From: Nitrospirota bacterium | GTDB taxonomy: Bacteria > Nitrospirota > Thermodesulfovibrionia > Thermodesulfovibrionales > JdFR-85 | Assembly (NCBI GenBank): GCA_013151495.1 | Contig: JAADIE010000109.1 | Location: 1-50,083, forward strand | DNA length: 50,083 nt | Direction of reading: 5' to 3' | Part shown: in pieces, positions 1,421 to 46,279 of the stretch | How positions within the stretch are numbered: position 1 is the first letter of the stretch | Layout: each line of letters begins with the position of its first letter | Program-made: the position numbers and the translations under genes | Notes under the pieces: generated by a model | Database searches by the model: none | Seen by the model: only the letters and a program-made list of their open reading frames with translations | What the model was told of the DNA's origin: nothing

Positions 1421-3837
<2,417 letters not shown>

Positions 3838-6603: not shown

Positions 6604-7606
6604 CTTTACTGCTCCAGAACCCTCTGGCTTCCCTTTGAAGCCTTTCCTTAAGCGGCTTCCACCACCAGCTGTTTTCTCTGTACCATTTTATGGTCCTTTC
6701 AATACCCTCAGAAAAATCAACCCGGGGGTGCCAGCCAAGCTCACTGGTAATCTTTGAAAAATCAATAGAATAACGGTAGTCATGCCCTGGCCTGTCAGGA
6801 ACAAACTCTATATAACCTTCGTCCAGACCCATAACCTCAAGTACAGCCTTTACCACTTCTATATTTCTCCTTTCGTTACCACCACCCACATTGTAGATCT
6901 CGCCTGTCCTGCCTTTATGCATAAGTATATCAACCGCCCTGCAGGTGTCTTCAACGAAAAGCCAGTCCCTTATATTCTGTCCTCTGCCATAAAGGGGTAT
7001 TTTCTTTCCCTCTATAAGGTTAGTCACCATCAGAGGAATGAACTTTTCTGGAAACTGGTAAGGACCATAGTTGTTAGATGGTCGTACAATTAGCGCTGAA
7101 AGGCCATAGGTTCTTATATATGACCTTACCAGCAGATCACCCCCTGCCTTTGATGCAGCATAGGGTGAGTTAGGCAAAAGAGGGGCCTCCTCTGTAAAGC
7201 TACCTTCATCGGTCTCAAAACAACCATAGACCTCATCAGTAGATATATGGATGAATCTTTCCACCTCTTCGGATAAGGCTACATCAAGAAGCACCTGCAG
7301 GCCTATGATATTTGTCTTTAGAAAGGGCTGGGCATCCTTTATTGAACGGTCAACATGGCTTTCTGCTGCAAAATGAACCACATACCTTGCCCCCTTCATC
7401 GCCTCCTCAACAATCTGCCGATCCTGTATGTCCCCTTTTATGAAATGATAGTTTTTCCTGTCCTTGATATCCTTTAGATTTTCAATATTACCAGCATAGG
7501 TAAGGGCATCCAGATTCACCACCTCGTAGGTGTCGTATTTGTTAAGAAGATACCTGATAAAGTTTGAACCTATGAAGCCACAACCACCTGTAACGAGTAT
7601 TTTCAT
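6593..7606 (-). CDS. rfbB: dTDP-glucose 4,6-dehydratase
   Basis: 337 aa. Motifs are VTGGCGFIGSNF, HFAAESHVDRS, ISTDEVYG, and YAASK (YxxxK). Confidence 0.95.
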   Translation of the reverse strand: MKILVTGGCGFIGSNFIRYLLNKYDTYEVVNLDALTYAGNIENLKDIKDRKNYHFIKGDIQDRQIVEEAMKGARYVVHFAAESHVDRSIKDAQPFLKTNIIGLQVLLDVALSEEVERFIHISTDEVYGCFETDEGSFTEEAPLLPNSPYAASKAGGDLLVRSYIRTYGLSALIVRPSNNYGPYQFPEKFIPLMVTNLIEGKKIPLYGRGQNIRDWLFVEDTCRAVDILMHKGRTGEIYNVGGGNERRNIEVVKAVLEVMGLDEGYIEFVPDRPGHDYRYSIDFSKITSELGWHPRVDFSEGIERTIKWYRENSWWWKPLKERLQREARGFWSSKDAR

Positions 7607-7632
7607 ACGGACTCTCCTGTTTTATGGTTCAT

Positions 7633-8094
7633 TTACAGCCTGAAAGGACTTTCAGGGTCATCCTCATAACGTACTTCATCGACCGGTTCCCTGCGTCCCC
7701 ATCCGGCATAAAGCCTGTCGGGCAGATTAATGACAAGCCCATCGCCCTGACCCGTGTTCTTATAAGCATGTACCACACCTGGAGGTATCACCACAAGCAT
7801 CCGGTCTACATCATCAATAACCATCCTGTTACCATAGGTTGGTGAGTCAGTTCTATTGTCCCAGAGATAAAGAGTGAATTTCCCTATAAAACAAAAGTAA
7901 TCAGTCTGCTCTTTATGCTCATGGGGCCCTCGTGCAATACCTGGATAGGTCAACGACACATAGGCCATGGCCGGTCTAAAGCCCTCGGGAAGCTCATCCT
8001 CCCTGAAAAGCTCAGTAAGCCAGCCTCTTTTGTCAGTATAAAACTGTAATTCCTTGATGACAACCCCTTCTATTGGGCCTTCTTTAAACTCCAT
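7633..8094 (-). CDS. rfbC: dTDP-4-dehydrorhamnose 3,5-epimerase-like cupin (short form)
   Basis: 153 aa. Features are DKRGWLTELFR, GIARGPHEHK, and a cupin core ending VVHAYKN. It lies between rfbA and rfbB. Confidence 0.78.
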   Translation of the reverse strand: MEFKEGPIEGVVIKELQFYTDKRGWLTELFREDELPEGFRPAMAYVSLTYPGIARGPHEHKEQTDYFCFIGKFTLYLWDNRTDSPTYGNRMVIDDVDRMLVVIPPGVVHAYKNTGQGDGLVINLPDRLYAGWGRREPVDEVRYEDDPESPFRL

Positions 8095-13251: not shown

Positions 13252-13367
13252 CTCTATACTCCCTCAACTCAAATTACTTTATCTTATCAAATCAGAAAAA
13301 GAATAACAAATAATTCTTCCATTAACTTAAATTGCCAATAAAAAAAGGGGGCATAAACTTAATTAAA

Positions 13368-13498
13368 GTAGAAGGGTATAGGGTTTGAGCGGTTTCAGGC
13401 AATCTAATAGCTTCACCAGGAGGGTGAAGTAGATTGCCTGCCTCGGAGCAGGCCATGGATGGCCTGCGAGAATGAGCGAAAAGCCTATACCCTTCTAC
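13368..13498 (+). repeat. structured intergenic element, copy 1 (candidate ncRNA family)
   Basis: A perfect 15-bp closing stem pairs GTAGAAGGGTATAGG with CCTATACCCTTCTAC. The 5' junction is TTTGAGCGGTTT. Hairpin P2 (13396-13440) has an 11-bp stem, a 5'-side bulge ATAG, a 7-bp stem, and loop AGGAG. It is followed by CCTCGGAG, hairpin P3 (CAGGCC-ATGGAT-GGCCTG), and the 3' junction CGAGAATGAGCGAAAAG. Confidence 0.8.
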
Positions 13499-13609
13499 CC
13501 TATTACTGACTGATGAATTAATCGGCAATTTAGAGTTTTATGAAGCGGTTGTAACTTTTCCTGACTTTAAGATATTATTGTTAGTCAGTCTTTTAAGCTG
13601 GAGGCTCTT

Positions 13610-14617
13610 GTGTTTAAACCCTTTGAAACAACAGGTATAGGAAGTCTTCCTTTTACAGACCCTGAAGAGGCTGTAAAGCTTGTACTTGAAGGTTGCGACA
13701 TCCCCTTCTGGCCTCAGCTTCCCAAGCGCTCTTTCAAGGAATACATGATTCCTCAGTACTGTGAGGGCTTCCCATGTATTGAGGTGGATGAGGAAAAAAA
13801 GCAGGTCAGTCTAAAGGCCACTACTCAGGAGGATTTAAATGCCTTTTATGAGGCAATATCAAAGGGTGAGGCCTTTCCTATTTCCGGTGACTTTGCTGCA
13901 GGTTTTTATGCCTTTAAAGAGGCCCTTAAAAAAGGCTCAACATATGCAATTAAGGGACAGATAACCGGCCCTCTGACCTTCAGCCTTGGATTAAAGGACC
14001 CGGAAGGCAGATATCTGTACTTTAACGAGGAACTGCGAGAGATTGCCTTGATGCTCCTTTCAGCCAAGGCACGCTGGCAGATTGAAGTATTAAAGGAATA
14101 TGCAGAACAGGTTATAATGTTTATTGATGAGCCTATCCTTTCAGCCCTTGGAAGTAGCAGTTACCTTGGTGTCAGCACTGATGAGGCCGGAAGGATGCTC
14201 AAAACCCTGGTGGAGGAAATTCATTCAGCTGGCGCGATATCAGGGATTCATTGCTGCGGAAAGGCTGACTGGGCCCTGGTGATCGAAACCGGTGTAAAGA
14301 TACTTAATTTTGATGCCTTTGATTATTTTGATGCCTTTAATGCCTATTCAGGTGAGATTGCCTCTTTTGTTCAGCGGGGAGGGCTTATTGCATGGGGGAT
14401 TATTCCGACAACCGATGCTATTAACACCACCAGTCTGGATAAACTCAAAGAAAAACTCACAGGGCAGATAGAGACCCTTGGCAGGGTGTTACCAGTAGAT
14501 ACCATAAAGAGCCACTCCCTCCTTACCCCTTCCTGCGGAGCTGGTAGCAGAACTGTGCAGGAGGCCAGAAGGGTTTTTCAGTTACTGGTCAGCCTTAAGG
14601 AGGCCATGCTTTCATGA
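13610..14617 (+). CDS. MetE-C-terminal/URO-D-like (cobalamin-independent methionine synthase family) protein
   Basis: 335 aa. The GTG start follows GGAGG. Zinc-ligand-like blocks GIHCCGKADW and LLTPSCGAG are typical of the MetE catalytic-domain family. The substrate is unknown. Confidence 0.6.
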   Translation: MFKPFETTGIGSLPFTDPEEAVKLVLEGCDIPFWPQLPKRSFKEYMIPQYCEGFPCIEVDEEKKQVSLKATTQEDLNAFYEAISKGEAFPISGDFAAGFYAFKEALKKGSTYAIKGQITGPLTFSLGLKDPEGRYLYFNEELREIALMLLSAKARWQIEVLKEYAEQVIMFIDEPILSALGSSSYLGVSTDEAGRMLKTLVEEIHSAGAISGIHCCGKADWALVIETGVKILNFDAFDYFDAFNAYSGEIASFVQRGGLIAWGIIPTTDAINTTSLDKLKEKLTGQIETLGRVLPVDTIKSHSLLTPSCGAGSRTVQEARRVFQLLVSLKEAMLS

Positions 14618-26556: not shown

Positions 26557-26639
26557 AAAAAATTCTAACATTACCTTTAAAAACCTGTCAAAAAGGGAAT
26601 ATACCCCAAAAATGCCAATTAGATTTGTCAGTCAATTGT

Positions 26640-26826
26640 AAGGCAGCAGGGTATAGGCTTTTCGCTCATTCTCGCAGGCCATCCATGGCCTCAGTGCCCC
26701 GAAAAGTCTTTGACTTTTCGGGGGCCCCCTGCTCCGAGGCAGGCAATCTACTTCACCCTCCTGGTGAAGATTTTAGAAAGATTTTAGATTGCCTGAAACC
26801 GCTTAAACCCTATACCCTCCTGCCTT
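26640..26826 (-). repeat. structured intergenic element, copy 2 (opposite orientation to copy 1)
   Basis: The reverse complement shares long identical runs with copy 1: GCGGTTTCAGGCAATCTA, CTTCACCAGGAGGGTGAAGTAGATTGCCTGCCTCGGAGCAGG, and GGCCATGGATGGCCTGCGAGAATGAGCGAAAAGCCTATACCCT. The 18-bp closing stem has one mismatch. There are two insertions relative to copy 1. Confidence 0.8.
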
Positions 26827-26875
26827 TATAATATGGGCTTTTTTCTATCGACAAGTTAGAGTATAATTAAATCTT

Positions 26876-33690: not shown

Positions 33691-34698
33691 TTATCTACCC
33701 ACCTTTACCTCTGAGCGGTCATGTTCATTTTTTGGTCTCGAGAAGATCATCCTGCCAGCTGTGGTCTGTAGCACGCTCGTAACAGAAACATCTATGTTTT
33801 TGCCAATGAATCTCCTTCCGTTTTCCACAACCACCATGGTGCCATCATCAAGATAGGCAACGCCCTGATTGTGCTCCTTACCCTCTTTCAGAACAAAGAC
33901 CTTCATGGTCTCTCCAGGCAATACCACTGGTTTAAGGGCATTGGCCAGCTCATTGATATTAAGTACGGTAACACCCTGCAGGGCCGCAACCTTGTTCAGA
34001 TTGAAGTCATTGGTTAAGACCTTTGCATCAAGCATCTTTGCAAGGGCAACGAGCTTGGCATCGACCTCTTTGATCTGGGGAAAGTCCTCCTCCACAATCT
34101 TTACATCAATGTTAGACATCTTCTGCATCCTGTGCAGTATATCAAGCCCACGACGACCACGGGCCCTCCTCAGGGAGTCGGCCGAATCGGCTATATGCTG
34201 CAGTTCCTGCAATATAAATTGGGGGACAATAAGGGTTCCTTCAATAAAACCGGTCTCACATATGTCGGCAATCCTTCCATCAATAATAACACTTGTATCC
34301 AGGATCTTCTGATTGCTTTCCATGGCCTGGCCCTTCATCAGCCTCAACAGCCCGGTGGCAGTTAGATTTTTTCCCCTTGCAAAACCAATAAGCATACCAC
34401 CATAACCAAACAATGCATTCAGTATAAATGTAACCATGCTTACATAATCTGGCATCAGGGGCTTAATCGGCATAATCAGCAATCTGGCAAATATGATCCC
34501 GAATAAAAGACCTAAAAAGGCACCAATGAATCTGCCAAGGTTGACCCTCTGAAAAAAACGATCTAAAAATAAGGTAATTATTCCGAGGGCCAAACCTGAA
34601 AGGGCACCAGCCATAGAGTATCCGAATTTGCTACCAAGCAAATAGCCCCCTGCCAGAAAGGAAACAATTATCAGAGCCCTTAAAAGAAGCAAAAACAC
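33691..34698 (-). CDS. PIN/TRAM domain membrane protein (YacL-like)
   Basis: 335 aa. It has about four N-terminal TM helices, a PIN domain ([12 protein letters not shown]), and a C-terminal TRAM-like domain. The conserved yacL-ispD-ispF gene order is present. Confidence 0.83.
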
Positions 34699-34767
34699 CT
34701 CTATTCACCTCCTTTCCTTACAATTTTTATTTTTATTTATATTTTATTTTCATTGGTGTCCGGTAAA

Positions 34768-34944
34768 AAAACAGGGGATATTAATTTTGAGCGGTTTTAA
34801 TTTTGCGAAAGATTTGCCATGGAGGGCAAATCGCAAAATTTCCTCGGAGGCAGACACGGGGTCCCCGAAAAGTCGATAGACTTTTCGGGGTAGAGACTTG
34901 GATGTCTGCCGAGAATGAGACGAAAAATTAATATCCCCTGTTTT
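34768..34944 (+). repeat. structured intergenic element, copy 3 (diverged copy with compensatory stems)
   Basis: A perfect 21-bp closing stem pairs AAAACAGGGGATATTAATTTT with AAAATTAATATCCCCTGTTTT. It has the same junction strings as copies 1 and 2: TTTTGAGCGGTTTT, TCCTCGGAG, and CGAGAATGAGACGAAAAA. P2 has an 8-bp stem, a 5' bulge GAAA, an 8-bp stem, and loop ATGGAG. P3 closes with GCAGACA/TGTCTGC. Confidence 0.78.
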
Positions 34945-34998
34945 ACAATAAGTTATCATCGTTTATCAGACATTAGTGATTTATTTTTTAGATTTATT

Positions 34999-36450
34999 TC
35001 AGGGTGTAATTGCCAGGTAAAACCGCTTGCCCCTCCTGTTTACAAGCAAGACCACTGTATCTTCCTCTTTTATGTTGTTTAGCGCCTCCTTCCAGCTATC
35101 ATAATCCTTTATGTCCTTGCTGTCAATCTCCTGGATTATATCACCCTTTTTTAGTCCTGCATCATGGGCCGGGCTGTCGGTCTGAACATCCACGACCACA
35201 ACTCCCTTTTCCTTCAATGACACTCCTAATTGTCTGGCTATTGCAGGGGTAATGTCGGTTACAGTAACACCGTAAAGGGCATTGGCCACTTCGGCCTGAA
35301 CTGTATAGTCCTCAGCAAACTCGTTGAATTCCTTGGGCAATTCAGCCACAACCACTGTCAGTCTCTTTGGTCTTCTGTTTCTGATTACCTCTATGGTCTT
35401 CCTGGATCCTATCGGACTCTGGGCAACCAGGTTTCTGAGCATTGAGACATTTTCCACAGTCTTATTATCAAATCTGACTATTACATCCCCTCTTTTAATA
35501 CCAGCCCTGTCAGCAGGGCTTCCCCTCAGCACATCACTAACCAGAGCGCCTGTGGTCTTGTTTATACCGAACTCCCTTGCAAGCTCAGGTGTCAGGTCCT
35601 GAATGGTTACTCCAAGCCATCCCCTCACCACCTTGCCCTTTTTCATGAGCTGCTCAATCACGGCCCTCACCATATTGCTTGGCACTGCAAAACCGATTCC
35701 CTGATAGCCCCCACTGCGGGAAAAAATGGCTGTATTGATACCTACAAGCTCTCCTTTTGTATTAACCAGAGGCCCACCTGAGTTGCCCGGATTTATAGCG
35801 GCATCGGTCTGGATAAAGTCCTCATAATCAGCAATTCCCACATTTGCCCGCCCAACTGCACTTACAATCCCCATTGTTACAGTGTGGCTAAGGCCAAAGG
35901 GATTACCAATGGCAAGCACGAATTCGCCAACGCTCAGGGTGTCTGAATTGCCCCAGGGAATGGTGGGTAGCCCGCTTTCTTTTATCTTTATCAAAGCAAT
36001 GTCTGTCTTTGGATCAGCACCCACAACCCTGGCTTTAAAACTCCTTCTGTCATAAAGCGTTACCCTTATCTCGTCGGCCTGTTCAATAACATGATGATTT
36101 GTAATAATATAACCATCCTGAGAGATGATAACCCCTGAGCCAAGGCTTTGCTCCTTGTACTGTCTTGGCCCCCTGTGAAAAGGGTTAAAAAAGTCGAAAA
36201 AACCATCATTTAGTGTACCGGTGCCCTGGTATCTCTTGGTTGTAGAAATGTTAACCACAGCAGGAGATACAGACCTGACTACATCGGCAAAGTCCCTGTT
36301 TATGGATCTAACATTTTCTGAAACCTCAGGCTGTCTGTAGGGCAGATAAGTTGGTTTATTAATACGCTCGTATAATGTATAATAGGTTAAGCCCCCTAAG
36401 AGGAAACCTATAAGTAAAATTAATAGACCTAAAAGTATATTCTTTTTCAT
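34999..36450 (-). CDS. htrA: periplasmic serine endoprotease DegP/HtrA family (two PDZ domains)
   Basis: 483 aa. It has an N-terminal anchor and catalytic-triad contexts ITNHHV, DIALIK, and GNSGGPLV, followed by two PDZ-like repeats. Confidence 0.93.
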   Translation of the reverse strand: MKKNILLGLLILLIGFLLGGLTYYTLYERINKPTYLPYRQPEVSENVRSINRDFADVVRSVSPAVVNISTTKRYQGTGTLNDGFFDFFNPFHRGPRQYKEQSLGSGVIISQDGYIITNHHVIEQADEIRVTLYDRRSFKARVVGADPKTDIALIKIKESGLPTIPWGNSDTLSVGEFVLAIGNPFGLSHTVTMGIVSAVGRANVGIADYEDFIQTDAAINPGNSGGPLVNTKGELVGINTAIFSRSGGYQGIGFAVPSNMVRAVIEQLMKKGKVVRGWLGVTIQDLTPELAREFGINKTTGALVSDVLRGSPADRAGIKRGDVIVRFDNKTVENVSMLRNLVAQSPIGSRKTIEVIRNRRPKRLTVVVAELPKEFNEFAEDYTVQAEVANALYGVTVTDITPAIARQLGVSLKEKGVVVVDVQTDSPAHDAGLKKGDIIQEIDSKDIKDYDSWKEALNNIKEEDTVVLLVNRRGKRFYLAITP

Positions 36451-46181: not shown

Positions 46182-46279
46182 GGGAGCGGATGGGGTTCTG
46201 GTGTCCCCCCCGGACTTCAAATCCGGTGTTCCCTGCCACAAGTGGGGAAGGTGGGTTCGATTCCCACACGCTCCCGCCA
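46182..46279 (+). tRNA. selC: tRNA-Sec (anticodon UCA)
   Basis: 98 nt, GGGAGCGG...CGCTCCC-G-CCA. The anticodon arm is CCGGA-CTTCAAA-TCCGG with TCA at 46217-46219. The extra arm has an 8-bp stem (TTCCCTGC/GTGGGGAA, including G-U pairs) with loop CACAA. The T arm is GTGGG-TTCGATT-CCCAC. The 7-8 bp acceptor ends with an encoded CCA. It was folded by hand. Confidence 0.9.

Follow-up and report, generated by a model that had tools for sequence, protein, structure and literature searches.

A MITE-like repeat with a covarying three-way-junction core in the htrA–yacL spacer of a Nitrospirota bacterium

The htrA–yacL spacer and the parts of the element

In the window, by which we mean the whole 50,083-nt stretch of DNA analysed here, two minus-strand genes encode a YacL-like protein with PIN and TRAM domains (33691–34698) and an HtrA-like protease with Trypsin_2 and PDZ domains (34999–36450). 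The spacer between them holds one copy (copy 3, 34768–34944) of a mobile DNA repeat of about 230 bases that is without a gene. Copy 3 is crossed by a single ORF, of 69 aa, which is not conserved among the copies, since their stems are replaced between one copy and another.

The original prediction bounded the element by its closing stem. The whole element is in fact larger (about 34751–34978, 228 nt) and extends beyond this stem into a pair of terminal inverted repeats on the + strand: CATTGGTGTCCGGTAAA on the left (34751–34767), which matches the left ends of the related copies L030 (TTAGTGTCCGGTAAAAA), L001 and L002, and TTTATCAGACATTAGTG on the right (34962–34978), which matches the right ends of L030 and L001. 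As the 5′ and 3′ arms of a helix, P0, these two repeats form 12 Watson–Crick pairs, 4 G·U pairs and 1 C·A mismatch, and when the whole 228-nt RNA is folded it is the paired repeats that close the structure. Inside lies a core of about 130 nt, a three-way junction made of the closing stem P1 and the two hairpins P2 and P3.

All the parts of copy 3 that had been listed from the sequence (P1, J12, the two-tier P2 with its GAAA bulge and loop, J23, P3 and J31) were found where they had been placed on the + strand. P1 (34768–34788 with 34924–34944) is 21 nt long and 100% complementary, and it leads into the junction strand J12, TTGAGCGGTTT (34787–34797), a string that is identical in copies 1 and 3. 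The P2 hairpin (34799–34840) has a lower tier P2a, AATTTTGC/GCAAAATT (34799–34806 and 34833–34840), a GAAA bulge on the 5′ side only (34807–34810), an upper tier P2b, GATTTGCC/GGCAAATC (34811–34818 and 34825–34832), and an ATGGAG apical loop (34819–34824). J23, CCTCGGAG (34842–34849), connects it to the P3 hairpin (34850–34909), in which GCAGACA (34850–34856) pairs with TGTCTGC (34903–34909) below a TGGA loop, and J31, CGAGAATGAGACGAAAA (34910–34926), leads back to P1.

On the 5′ side of P3, the copy carries an optional 42-nt module (34857–34898, + strand) that includes a perfect 12-bp hairpin, CCCCGAAAAGTC/GACTTTTCGGGG, and that had not been separated from P3 in the original prediction. A module of 38–42 nt occupies the same place in copy 2 and in the copies of the metagenome-assembled genome (MAG) S139_46; it is absent from copy 1 and from L047. 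The copy at the same locus in GCA_054046125.1 (L001) is without 29 nt of it (TCCCCGAAAAGTCGATAGACTTTTCGGGG, window 34862–34890) and is otherwise identical to copy 3. The 29-nt difference is bounded by GGGG direct repeats and is probably the result of slippage across the perfect hairpin.

The minimum free energy of copy 3 as a + strand RNA is −87.4 kcal/mol, compared with −45.3 ± 4.5 kcal/mol for its shuffles (z = −9.5), and the J31 string occurs three times in the window, where 0.32 occurrences would be expected. From these two numbers, it is clear that copy 3 is not a product of chance. A covariance-model search confirmed that the window holds three copies only, the other two being those already placed at about 13365–13501 (+) and 26640–26826 (−). 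Copy 1 as a whole element spans 13325–13535 on the + strand, with terminal inverted repeats at 13325–13339 and 13521–13535 around the core (124 bits), and copy 2 spans 26604–26861 on the − strand, with terminal inverted repeats at 26845–26861 and 26604–26620 around its core (79 bits). The closing stem of copy 3 had been described as unrelated to those of copies 1 and 2; it is not entirely so, and CAGGGGATATTAATTTT and CAGGAGGGTATAGGGTTT share a CAGG..G.TAT....TTT frame. A 335-aa ORF without a Pfam family lies 3′ of copy 1 (13610–14617, +).

Relatives, ends and mobility

Relatives were gathered by an exact-pattern scan (TGGATG-N5-CGAGAATGAG-(N)-CGAAAA) of 185,579 species genomes and 241 million metagenome records, which returned 65 loci. 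The genomes gave 49 loci in 19 assemblies, nearly all of them Thermodesulfovibrionia/Nitrospirota MAGs, with one locus from a Thermodesulfobacteriota MAG and one from Desulfospira joergensenii; the metagenomes gave 16 contigs, and the same scan of viral contigs gave no match. A covariance model, R1, was then built from 30 copies, with its structure taken as the majority vote of single-sequence folds; a first MAFFT/RNAalifold consensus had missed P2. R1 detects 63 copies in the window and the genome loci and 16 more in the metagenome loci, i.e. 79 relatives in all. Since the P3 loop (TGGATG) and J31 (CGAGAATGAG, CGAAAA) belonged to the fetching pattern, the invariance of these two parts is partly by construction. 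When the pattern was relaxed, ten copies were obtained with single changes only in J31 and with the GGAUG loop of P3 kept.

The ends of the element are best seen in S139_46, which holds 13 loci, several at contig ends, as is expected of a repeat that breaks assemblies. Among its near-identical copies, identity starts at CCCCAGATTGCCGATAGAAAAAAT and stops at ...GAGTCAATCGGCATTTTTGGGG, exactly at CCCC.../...GGGG, and the terminal inverted repeats are CCCCAGATTGCCGAT.../...ATCGGCATTTTTGGGG, lying in the family about 0–20 nt outside the closing stem. The end sequences vary among sublineages, and those of the others (CCCAGATTATTCATAAA, CCTAAATTGAGCGAT, CCTAAATCCCGATTT) are of the same kind; the true ends CCCCAGATTGCCGAT / CCCAGATTATTCAT / ..TGTCCGGTAAA represent the more conserved kind of end. 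Four of the six S139_46 copies with both flanks present have target duplications, of 5 bp in three cases (TTTCT, ACGAG, TAAGA) and of 6 bp in one (TGATCA), while the remaining two show one near match and one case without duplication. The flanks of copy 3 are A/T-only and its own target duplication is not resolvable. An empty site is present in a relative with 78% identity (L071), whose htrA–yacL spacer is 39 nt long; the same spacer is filled by the element in the window and in two close relatives (L001 and L069). In L070 (87% YacL identity), this spacer has a different and unrelated 135-nt fold-back palindrome (2340–2472, z = −7.0) that does not match R1, so palindromic elements seem to land in this spacer repeatedly.

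The 63 + 16 copies, including the three in the window, are dispersed at unrelated loci and have no coding capacity. When 609 ORFs from the loci were compared all against all by BLAST, no recurrent neighbouring gene was found, and no transposase of any kind was found near the 79 copies. In the approximately 490 kb of DNA fetched, no IS1380 homologue was present, and tblastn with the ISEcp1 transposase against the genome and metagenome loci gave chance matches only. MAGs are often without insertion sequences, so that the absence of a transposase is weak evidence. L027 was considered as a copy interrupted by a gene, i.e. as a possible autonomous partner, and was rejected because it is a truncated remnant beside queE: a 3′ part running from the P3 loop to P1′ (3188–3235) lies directly against the start codon of an opposite-strand gene for a QueE-like radical-SAM protein.

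Taken together, the inverted repeats, the 5-bp duplications, the empty site, the multiple copies and the lack of a nearby transposase identify the copy 3 family as a MITE-like, non-autonomous transposable element that is multi-copy in Thermodesulfovibrionia (Nitrospirota). The element has spread as many sublineages, and the family is new and widespread; no literature on MITEs or on such a motif in Thermodesulfovibrio or Nitrospirota was found. In the original prediction, the copies had been set against typical MITEs, with their conserved termini and free interior. This contrast took the closing stem for the terminus, whereas the true termini are the inverted repeats further out, with their 5-bp duplications and empty site. 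The element is thus MITE-like with an interior that is also under structural constraint, which is no alternative to its being a MITE. It resembles DDE-derived MITEs in its small size, the lack of an ORF, its multi-copy and intergenic occurrence, its short terminal inverted repeats and its 5-bp target duplications, and it differs from them in its constrained interior, where a three-way junction covaries, keeps about 35 bases fixed and prefers one strand, and in that no cognate transposase was found.

The ends offer a lead to the enzyme that may move it. Elements of the IS1380 family have ends that start with CC and make duplications of 4–5 bp. For ISEcp1 of this family, the left inverted repeat is CCTAGATTCTACGT, the right one reads CCTAAATTCCACGT as its reverse complement, and the duplications are of 5 bp (PMC6061673). 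When the ends of the copy 3 family (CCTAAATTGAGCGAT, CCCCAGATTGCCGAT, CCCAGATTATTCAT) are compared with these, the outermost bases CC(T/C)A(G/A)ATT and the 5-bp duplications show a resemblance; CCTAAATT is common to the right repeat of ISEcp1 over 8 bases and AGATT to its left repeat, a short and statistically weak match. These likenesses of ends and duplication length give moderate support to mobilisation in trans by an ISEcp1-like DDE transposase of the IS1380 family. The ISEcp1 leader was also checked as a homologue of the core; the two share a TTTCACC/GGTGAAA hairpin, but the leader has no match to the model, and homology was rejected.

Other known mobile repeats fit less well. TIMEs, which are derived from Tn3, have 38-bp inverted repeats starting with GGGG and 5-bp duplications (PMC4133298). 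With ends of about 17 nt that read 5′-CCCC...GGGG-3′, the present element agrees with them in duplication length only. REP, BIME and REPIN sequences are imperfect palindromes of 20–40 nt with a GTAG motif, are served by RAYT transposases and make no duplications; the element differs from them in size and architecture, has duplications and has no recurrent neighbouring gene. PATEs derived from IS200/IS605 and carriers of omega-RNA lack inverted repeats and duplications and are marked by subterminal hairpins, TnpA/TnpB and omega-RNA-type Rfam motifs; this class was rejected because inverted repeats and duplications are present and Rfam gives no matches. The helices of integron attC sites and of IS200/IS605 ends are similar in being variable in sequence and conserved in structure, with fixed unpaired bases, a one-sided bulge and a function on one strand. 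Unlike these systems, the present element has no gene cassettes, integrase, R/L core sites or TnpA/TnpB nearby, and it does have target duplications. More broadly, ERIC/IRU, Correia/NEMIS, BOX, RUP, REP/BIME and REPIN elements are intergenic palindromic repeats, often in operons, that fold in transcripts and can affect mRNA processing or stability. The copy 3 family is like them in being intergenic, palindromic and often inside operons; to our knowledge, however, the ERIC, Correia, BOX, RUP and REP families keep sequence and not structure, and none has a conserved, covarying multi-helix junction.

Covariation, fixed bases and the favoured strand

In the alignment of 63 copies, 44 of the 51 pairs have changes on both sides. 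Paired cells make up 88.2%, compared with 66.6% after shuffling and 37–48% with slid partners, and the covariation score is 0.49, against 0.15 (shuffled) and about 0.09 (slid); the alignment was fitted to R1 and so favours the structure, and the ungapped P1 counts and the raw sequences agree with it. The observed covariation values were reached by none of 500 shuffles and by no slid control. The pairs of P1 outside an invariant U-A run all vary on both sides among the 63 copies, and at least ten different, unrelated P2 sequences occur among the relatives, all of which pair. Where P1 meets the junction, tandem G·A pairs are formed (UUUGAGC/GCGAAAA).

The junctions behave in the opposite way. 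J12, J23 and the P2 apex are at least 95% conserved, although all three lie outside the search pattern. The GAGCGG positions of J12 are kept in 50–60 of about 60 copies, J23 is conserved in 58–61 of 62–63 copies except for a G/C alternation at one position, and 51 of 52 copies have C..GGA.G at the apex of P2. In all, the junctions and loops keep about 35 bases unchanged, whereas nearly all pairs have been exchanged for other pairs. The claim made from the window, that the stems have been replaced and yet remain paired while the junctions stay fixed, thus extends to the wider family, and the covariation that was to be sought with more homologues is present.

That every helix is perfectly paired was another part of the claim. 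The pairing is real, but it is weaker evidence than had been assumed, since template switching during replication can create and maintain hairpins in palindromes, with apparent compensatory changes, in the absence of selection (PMC8794818). Pairing is also kept at resident sites, as in the orthologous copies L024 and L051b, which lie in different MAGs with flanks that are about 95% identical. Between their P1 stems there are three double compensatory changes and a single G·U/A·U change, none of them disruptive, and the two copies differ at about 4 of 45 junction bases, compared with 27–39% of the stem bases. Such compensated change in situ can come from selection or from template switching. 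L028 and L044, which share a spacer, look like independent insertions of two members of the family. Not every copy is maintained, since some, such as L029 (3503–3639), are clearly decaying.

What template switching cannot explain is the conservation of the junctions and an asymmetry in wobble pairs. In P1, ungapped counts give 48 G·U against 15 A·C, and the model alignment, with near-duplicates removed, gives 74 against 27. When the copies are divided by gene context, the G·U:A·C ratios are 38:9, 7:1, 7:4 and 4:1, with the same sign throughout, so that wobble pairs are tolerated on one strand, as in a single-stranded fold. A mutational cause, i.e. deamination of the non-template or leading strand, was rejected because it predicts the opposite sign for antisense copies, which are the majority. 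In addition, when the two strands are compared as RNA, the + strand has the more stable fold in 55 of 59 copies, its mean advantage being 7.7 kcal/mol; for copy 3, the use of DNA parameters removes the difference between the strands. The fold is favoured only on the strand that reads GAGCGG...CCTCGGAG...CGAGAATGAG. This strand-specific wobble signal points to selection on a single-stranded fold, of RNA or of ssDNA, as had been proposed at the outset from the pattern of conservation, and the fold itself is probably what selection preserves in the core.

The orientation of the copies is also uneven. Among copies flanked by co-directional genes, 25 have the + strand antisense to the genes and 6 have it sense (23:6 when orthologous duplicates are left out), whereas a DDE transposase would be expected to insert without regard to orientation. 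Such a bias points to selection against insertions that place the + strand in the operon transcript, and it is of the kind expected if one strand has an activity at the RNA level. Copies typically lie 6–25 nt after a stop codon and 10–40 nt before the next ribosome-binding site. In the compact sublineages, 10–25 nt lie between the closing stem and the ribosome-binding site of the neighbouring gene, so that for most copies there is no obvious route to a + RNA. Promoter and terminator scans around the three window copies gave weak and inconsistent results, with no convincing conserved signal for a + transcript.

What the conserved fold may do

No family of Rfam 15 matches any copy: at E ≤ 10, only chance matches were obtained for copies 1 and 3, and nothing for L024 (sublineage B). 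The only hit in the window at the Rfam gathering score is a tRNA-Sec gene (46182–46275, +, 75.7 bits). Known ribozymes, riboswitches, omega-RNA-type motifs and TwoAYGGAY were rejected for lack of an Rfam match at gathering or permissive thresholds. A riboswitch or another cis-regulatory leader does not fit either, because the neighbours are unrelated (fumarase, ParA-like, amidohydrolase, HtrA, YacL and others) and the element is mostly antisense. A string in the right spacer of copy 3, CTGATGAG, that could be taken as hammerhead-like is a small local hairpin and is not conserved.

The loops suggest another kind of function. P2 and P3 end in C-(A/U)NGGA(U/G)-G loops, with (A/U)UGGAUG at the P3 apex, and J23 contributes a third GGA (CGGAG). 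The core thus has several GGA motifs, at least two of them in hairpin loops, with the spacing (10–63 nt apart) by which CsrA/Rsm-sequestering sRNAs are recognised. ANGGAN hairpin loops are CsrA-type sites, and TwoAYGGAY, with two AYGGAY loops, tandem G·A pairs and an outer stem, has been proposed to be a CsrA decoy (PMC4333381). Like TwoAYGGAY (RF01731), CsrB and RsmZ, the copy 3 core combines an outer closing stem and tandem G·A pairs with two hairpins whose ANGGAN loops are closed by C-G; unlike them, its hairpins belong to a three-way junction whose connecting strands are long and conserved, and it is mobile and mostly antisense. The likeness to TwoAYGGAY is therefore a resemblance in design only, not membership of that family. 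A motif search of the fetched DNA did not find csrA.

Our preferred reading, a model in which we place moderate confidence, is that copy 3 is a mobile element carrying a selected single-strand fold, probably an RNA and possibly one that binds protein. Copy 3 is one insertion of a non-autonomous MITE-like element, which would be moved in trans by an IS1380-type DDE transposase. Selection on its fold would act while the element propagates and would see it as a single strand, most likely of a transcript. Each of the two hairpins presents a C-ANGGAN-G loop, a putative site of the kind bound by CsrA/Rsm-type or other dimeric RNA-binding proteins. An RNA-level activity of the + strand would then account for the 25:6 ratio, with the surviving operon copies being those for which the operon transcript carries the inactive complement only.

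Alternatively, the core may act as single-stranded or extruded DNA in transposition, with its junctions and hairpins read by the machinery or used to juxtapose the ends, as in attC and IS200/IS605. A DNA structure would suit several observations: the excess of G·T over A·C is equal in every transcription context, which suggests the propagating form rather than the resident locus; most copies have no evident way to + strand transcription; the fold is equally strong with DNA parameters; P0 and P1 bring the two termini together; and the conservation spans sublineages with different ends. We nevertheless consider this reading unlikely. 5-bp duplications and inverted repeats like these belong to double-strand DDE transposition, for which a requirement for folds inside the element is not known, whereas the known ssDNA transposons (IS200/IS605, IS91) and attC recombination make no duplications. 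The window copies lie in both orientations within 21 kb, so that a strict replication-strand rule, such as an IS608-like one, is rejected. Furthermore, orthologous resident copies keep their pairing in situ, and the antisense bias in operons is an RNA-type signature. It is decidedly improbable, in our view, that the core is a leftover untranslated region (a regulatory leader and/or 3′ end) of a parent autonomous insertion sequence, selected in the transposase mRNA, with each MITE sublineage being an internal deletion of a different parent whose stems it inherited. Elements of the IS1380 type do have non-coding ends of about 190 nt (in ISEcp1, IRL at 797, ATG at 983, stop at 2245 and IRR at 2439–2452), and such a descent would explain the deep covariation between sublineages, the polarity of the + strand inward from the left end and the SD-like GGAG followed by an AUG in the P3 loop. 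However, none of the 65 pattern-fetched loci has a transposase beside the core, the ISEcp1 leader does not match the model, and in the parent the two arms of P1 would need to find each other across the entire transposase gene; compensated change in resident orthologues would also be unexpected for dead remnants, unless it came from template switching.

The reading to which we give very little credence is that the core has no function, its stems being kept by template switching and its junctions by recent ancestry and the fetching method. The capacity of template switching to make and maintain hairpins with seemingly compensatory changes, the fact that TGGATG, CGAGAATGAG and CGAAAA were forced by the search pattern, the decay of some copies and the unrelated fold-back palindrome in the same spacer of L070 are all in line with it. 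It leaves aside J12, J23 and the P2 apex, which are outside the pattern and at least 95% conserved across two phyla and across sublineages without a common stem sequence. Moreover, template switching predicts symmetric, perfect pairs and not one strand on which G·U exceeds A·C by 3:1, and the 25:6 ratio of orientations is no prediction of it either. The selected single-strand fold of our preferred reading could also be taken further, as a new class of functional RNA that rides transposon ends, either a catalytic or protein-recruiting RNA on which the element depends for its own spread or a mobile CsrA-type decoy; this extension is doubtful. In the first form, the RNA could for example recruit or regulate the transposase or a host factor; as a decoy, it would rewire post-transcriptional control at each landing site. 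In both forms, the conserved junctions, the wobble bias of one strand and the survival of mainly antisense copies in operons would be signatures of its activity.

MITEs are usually seen as inert shells that are constrained only at their ends. In the copy 3 family, it is the interior that is most constrained, with a multi-helix fold that outlasts complete turnover of its stems, on one strand and in two phyla. If the fold is that of an RNA, the family would be an undescribed one, unmatched in Rfam, from a little-studied lineage of thermophilic sulfate reducers, and it would be a structured RNA that spreads through the genome by transposition; this would bear on how regulatory RNAs and protein-binding decoys are seeded beside many genes at once. 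If the fold is that of DNA, it would suggest a DDE-type element that reads structure, which would be new for that class. Under either reading, the family is a ready-made covariation data set.

Several features of individual copies may also be recorded. In copy 3 (34842–34921, +) and at the equivalent positions of other copies, an unpaired GGAG in J23 lies 6–9 nt before an AUG or UUG in the P3 loop, and in some copies a UGA in J31 makes this a 6-codon mini-ORF, in a frame that is not kept across copies. A coding role for such a mini-ORF (GGAG-N6-AUG with the J31 stop) is not supported, since a 1-nt indel in J31 changes the reading frame and what follows differs between copies. Three metagenome contigs (L057, L062 and L068) represent an A/T-rich sublineage with a closing stem of 25 bp, in which J12 is TTTTGCGG instead of the TTTGAGCGG found elsewhere, so that the GAG of J12 is not universal. 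L012 (2107–2176) is a miniature made up of the two terminal inverted repeats alone with 33 nt between them, apparently the product of an internal deletion that took out the core. L020 holds two copies tail to tail, 3 nt apart (7369–7546 on the + strand and 7550–7684 on the − strand), the first of which has an insertion of a GGTTAAGGTTGAGG-type short repeat in P2.
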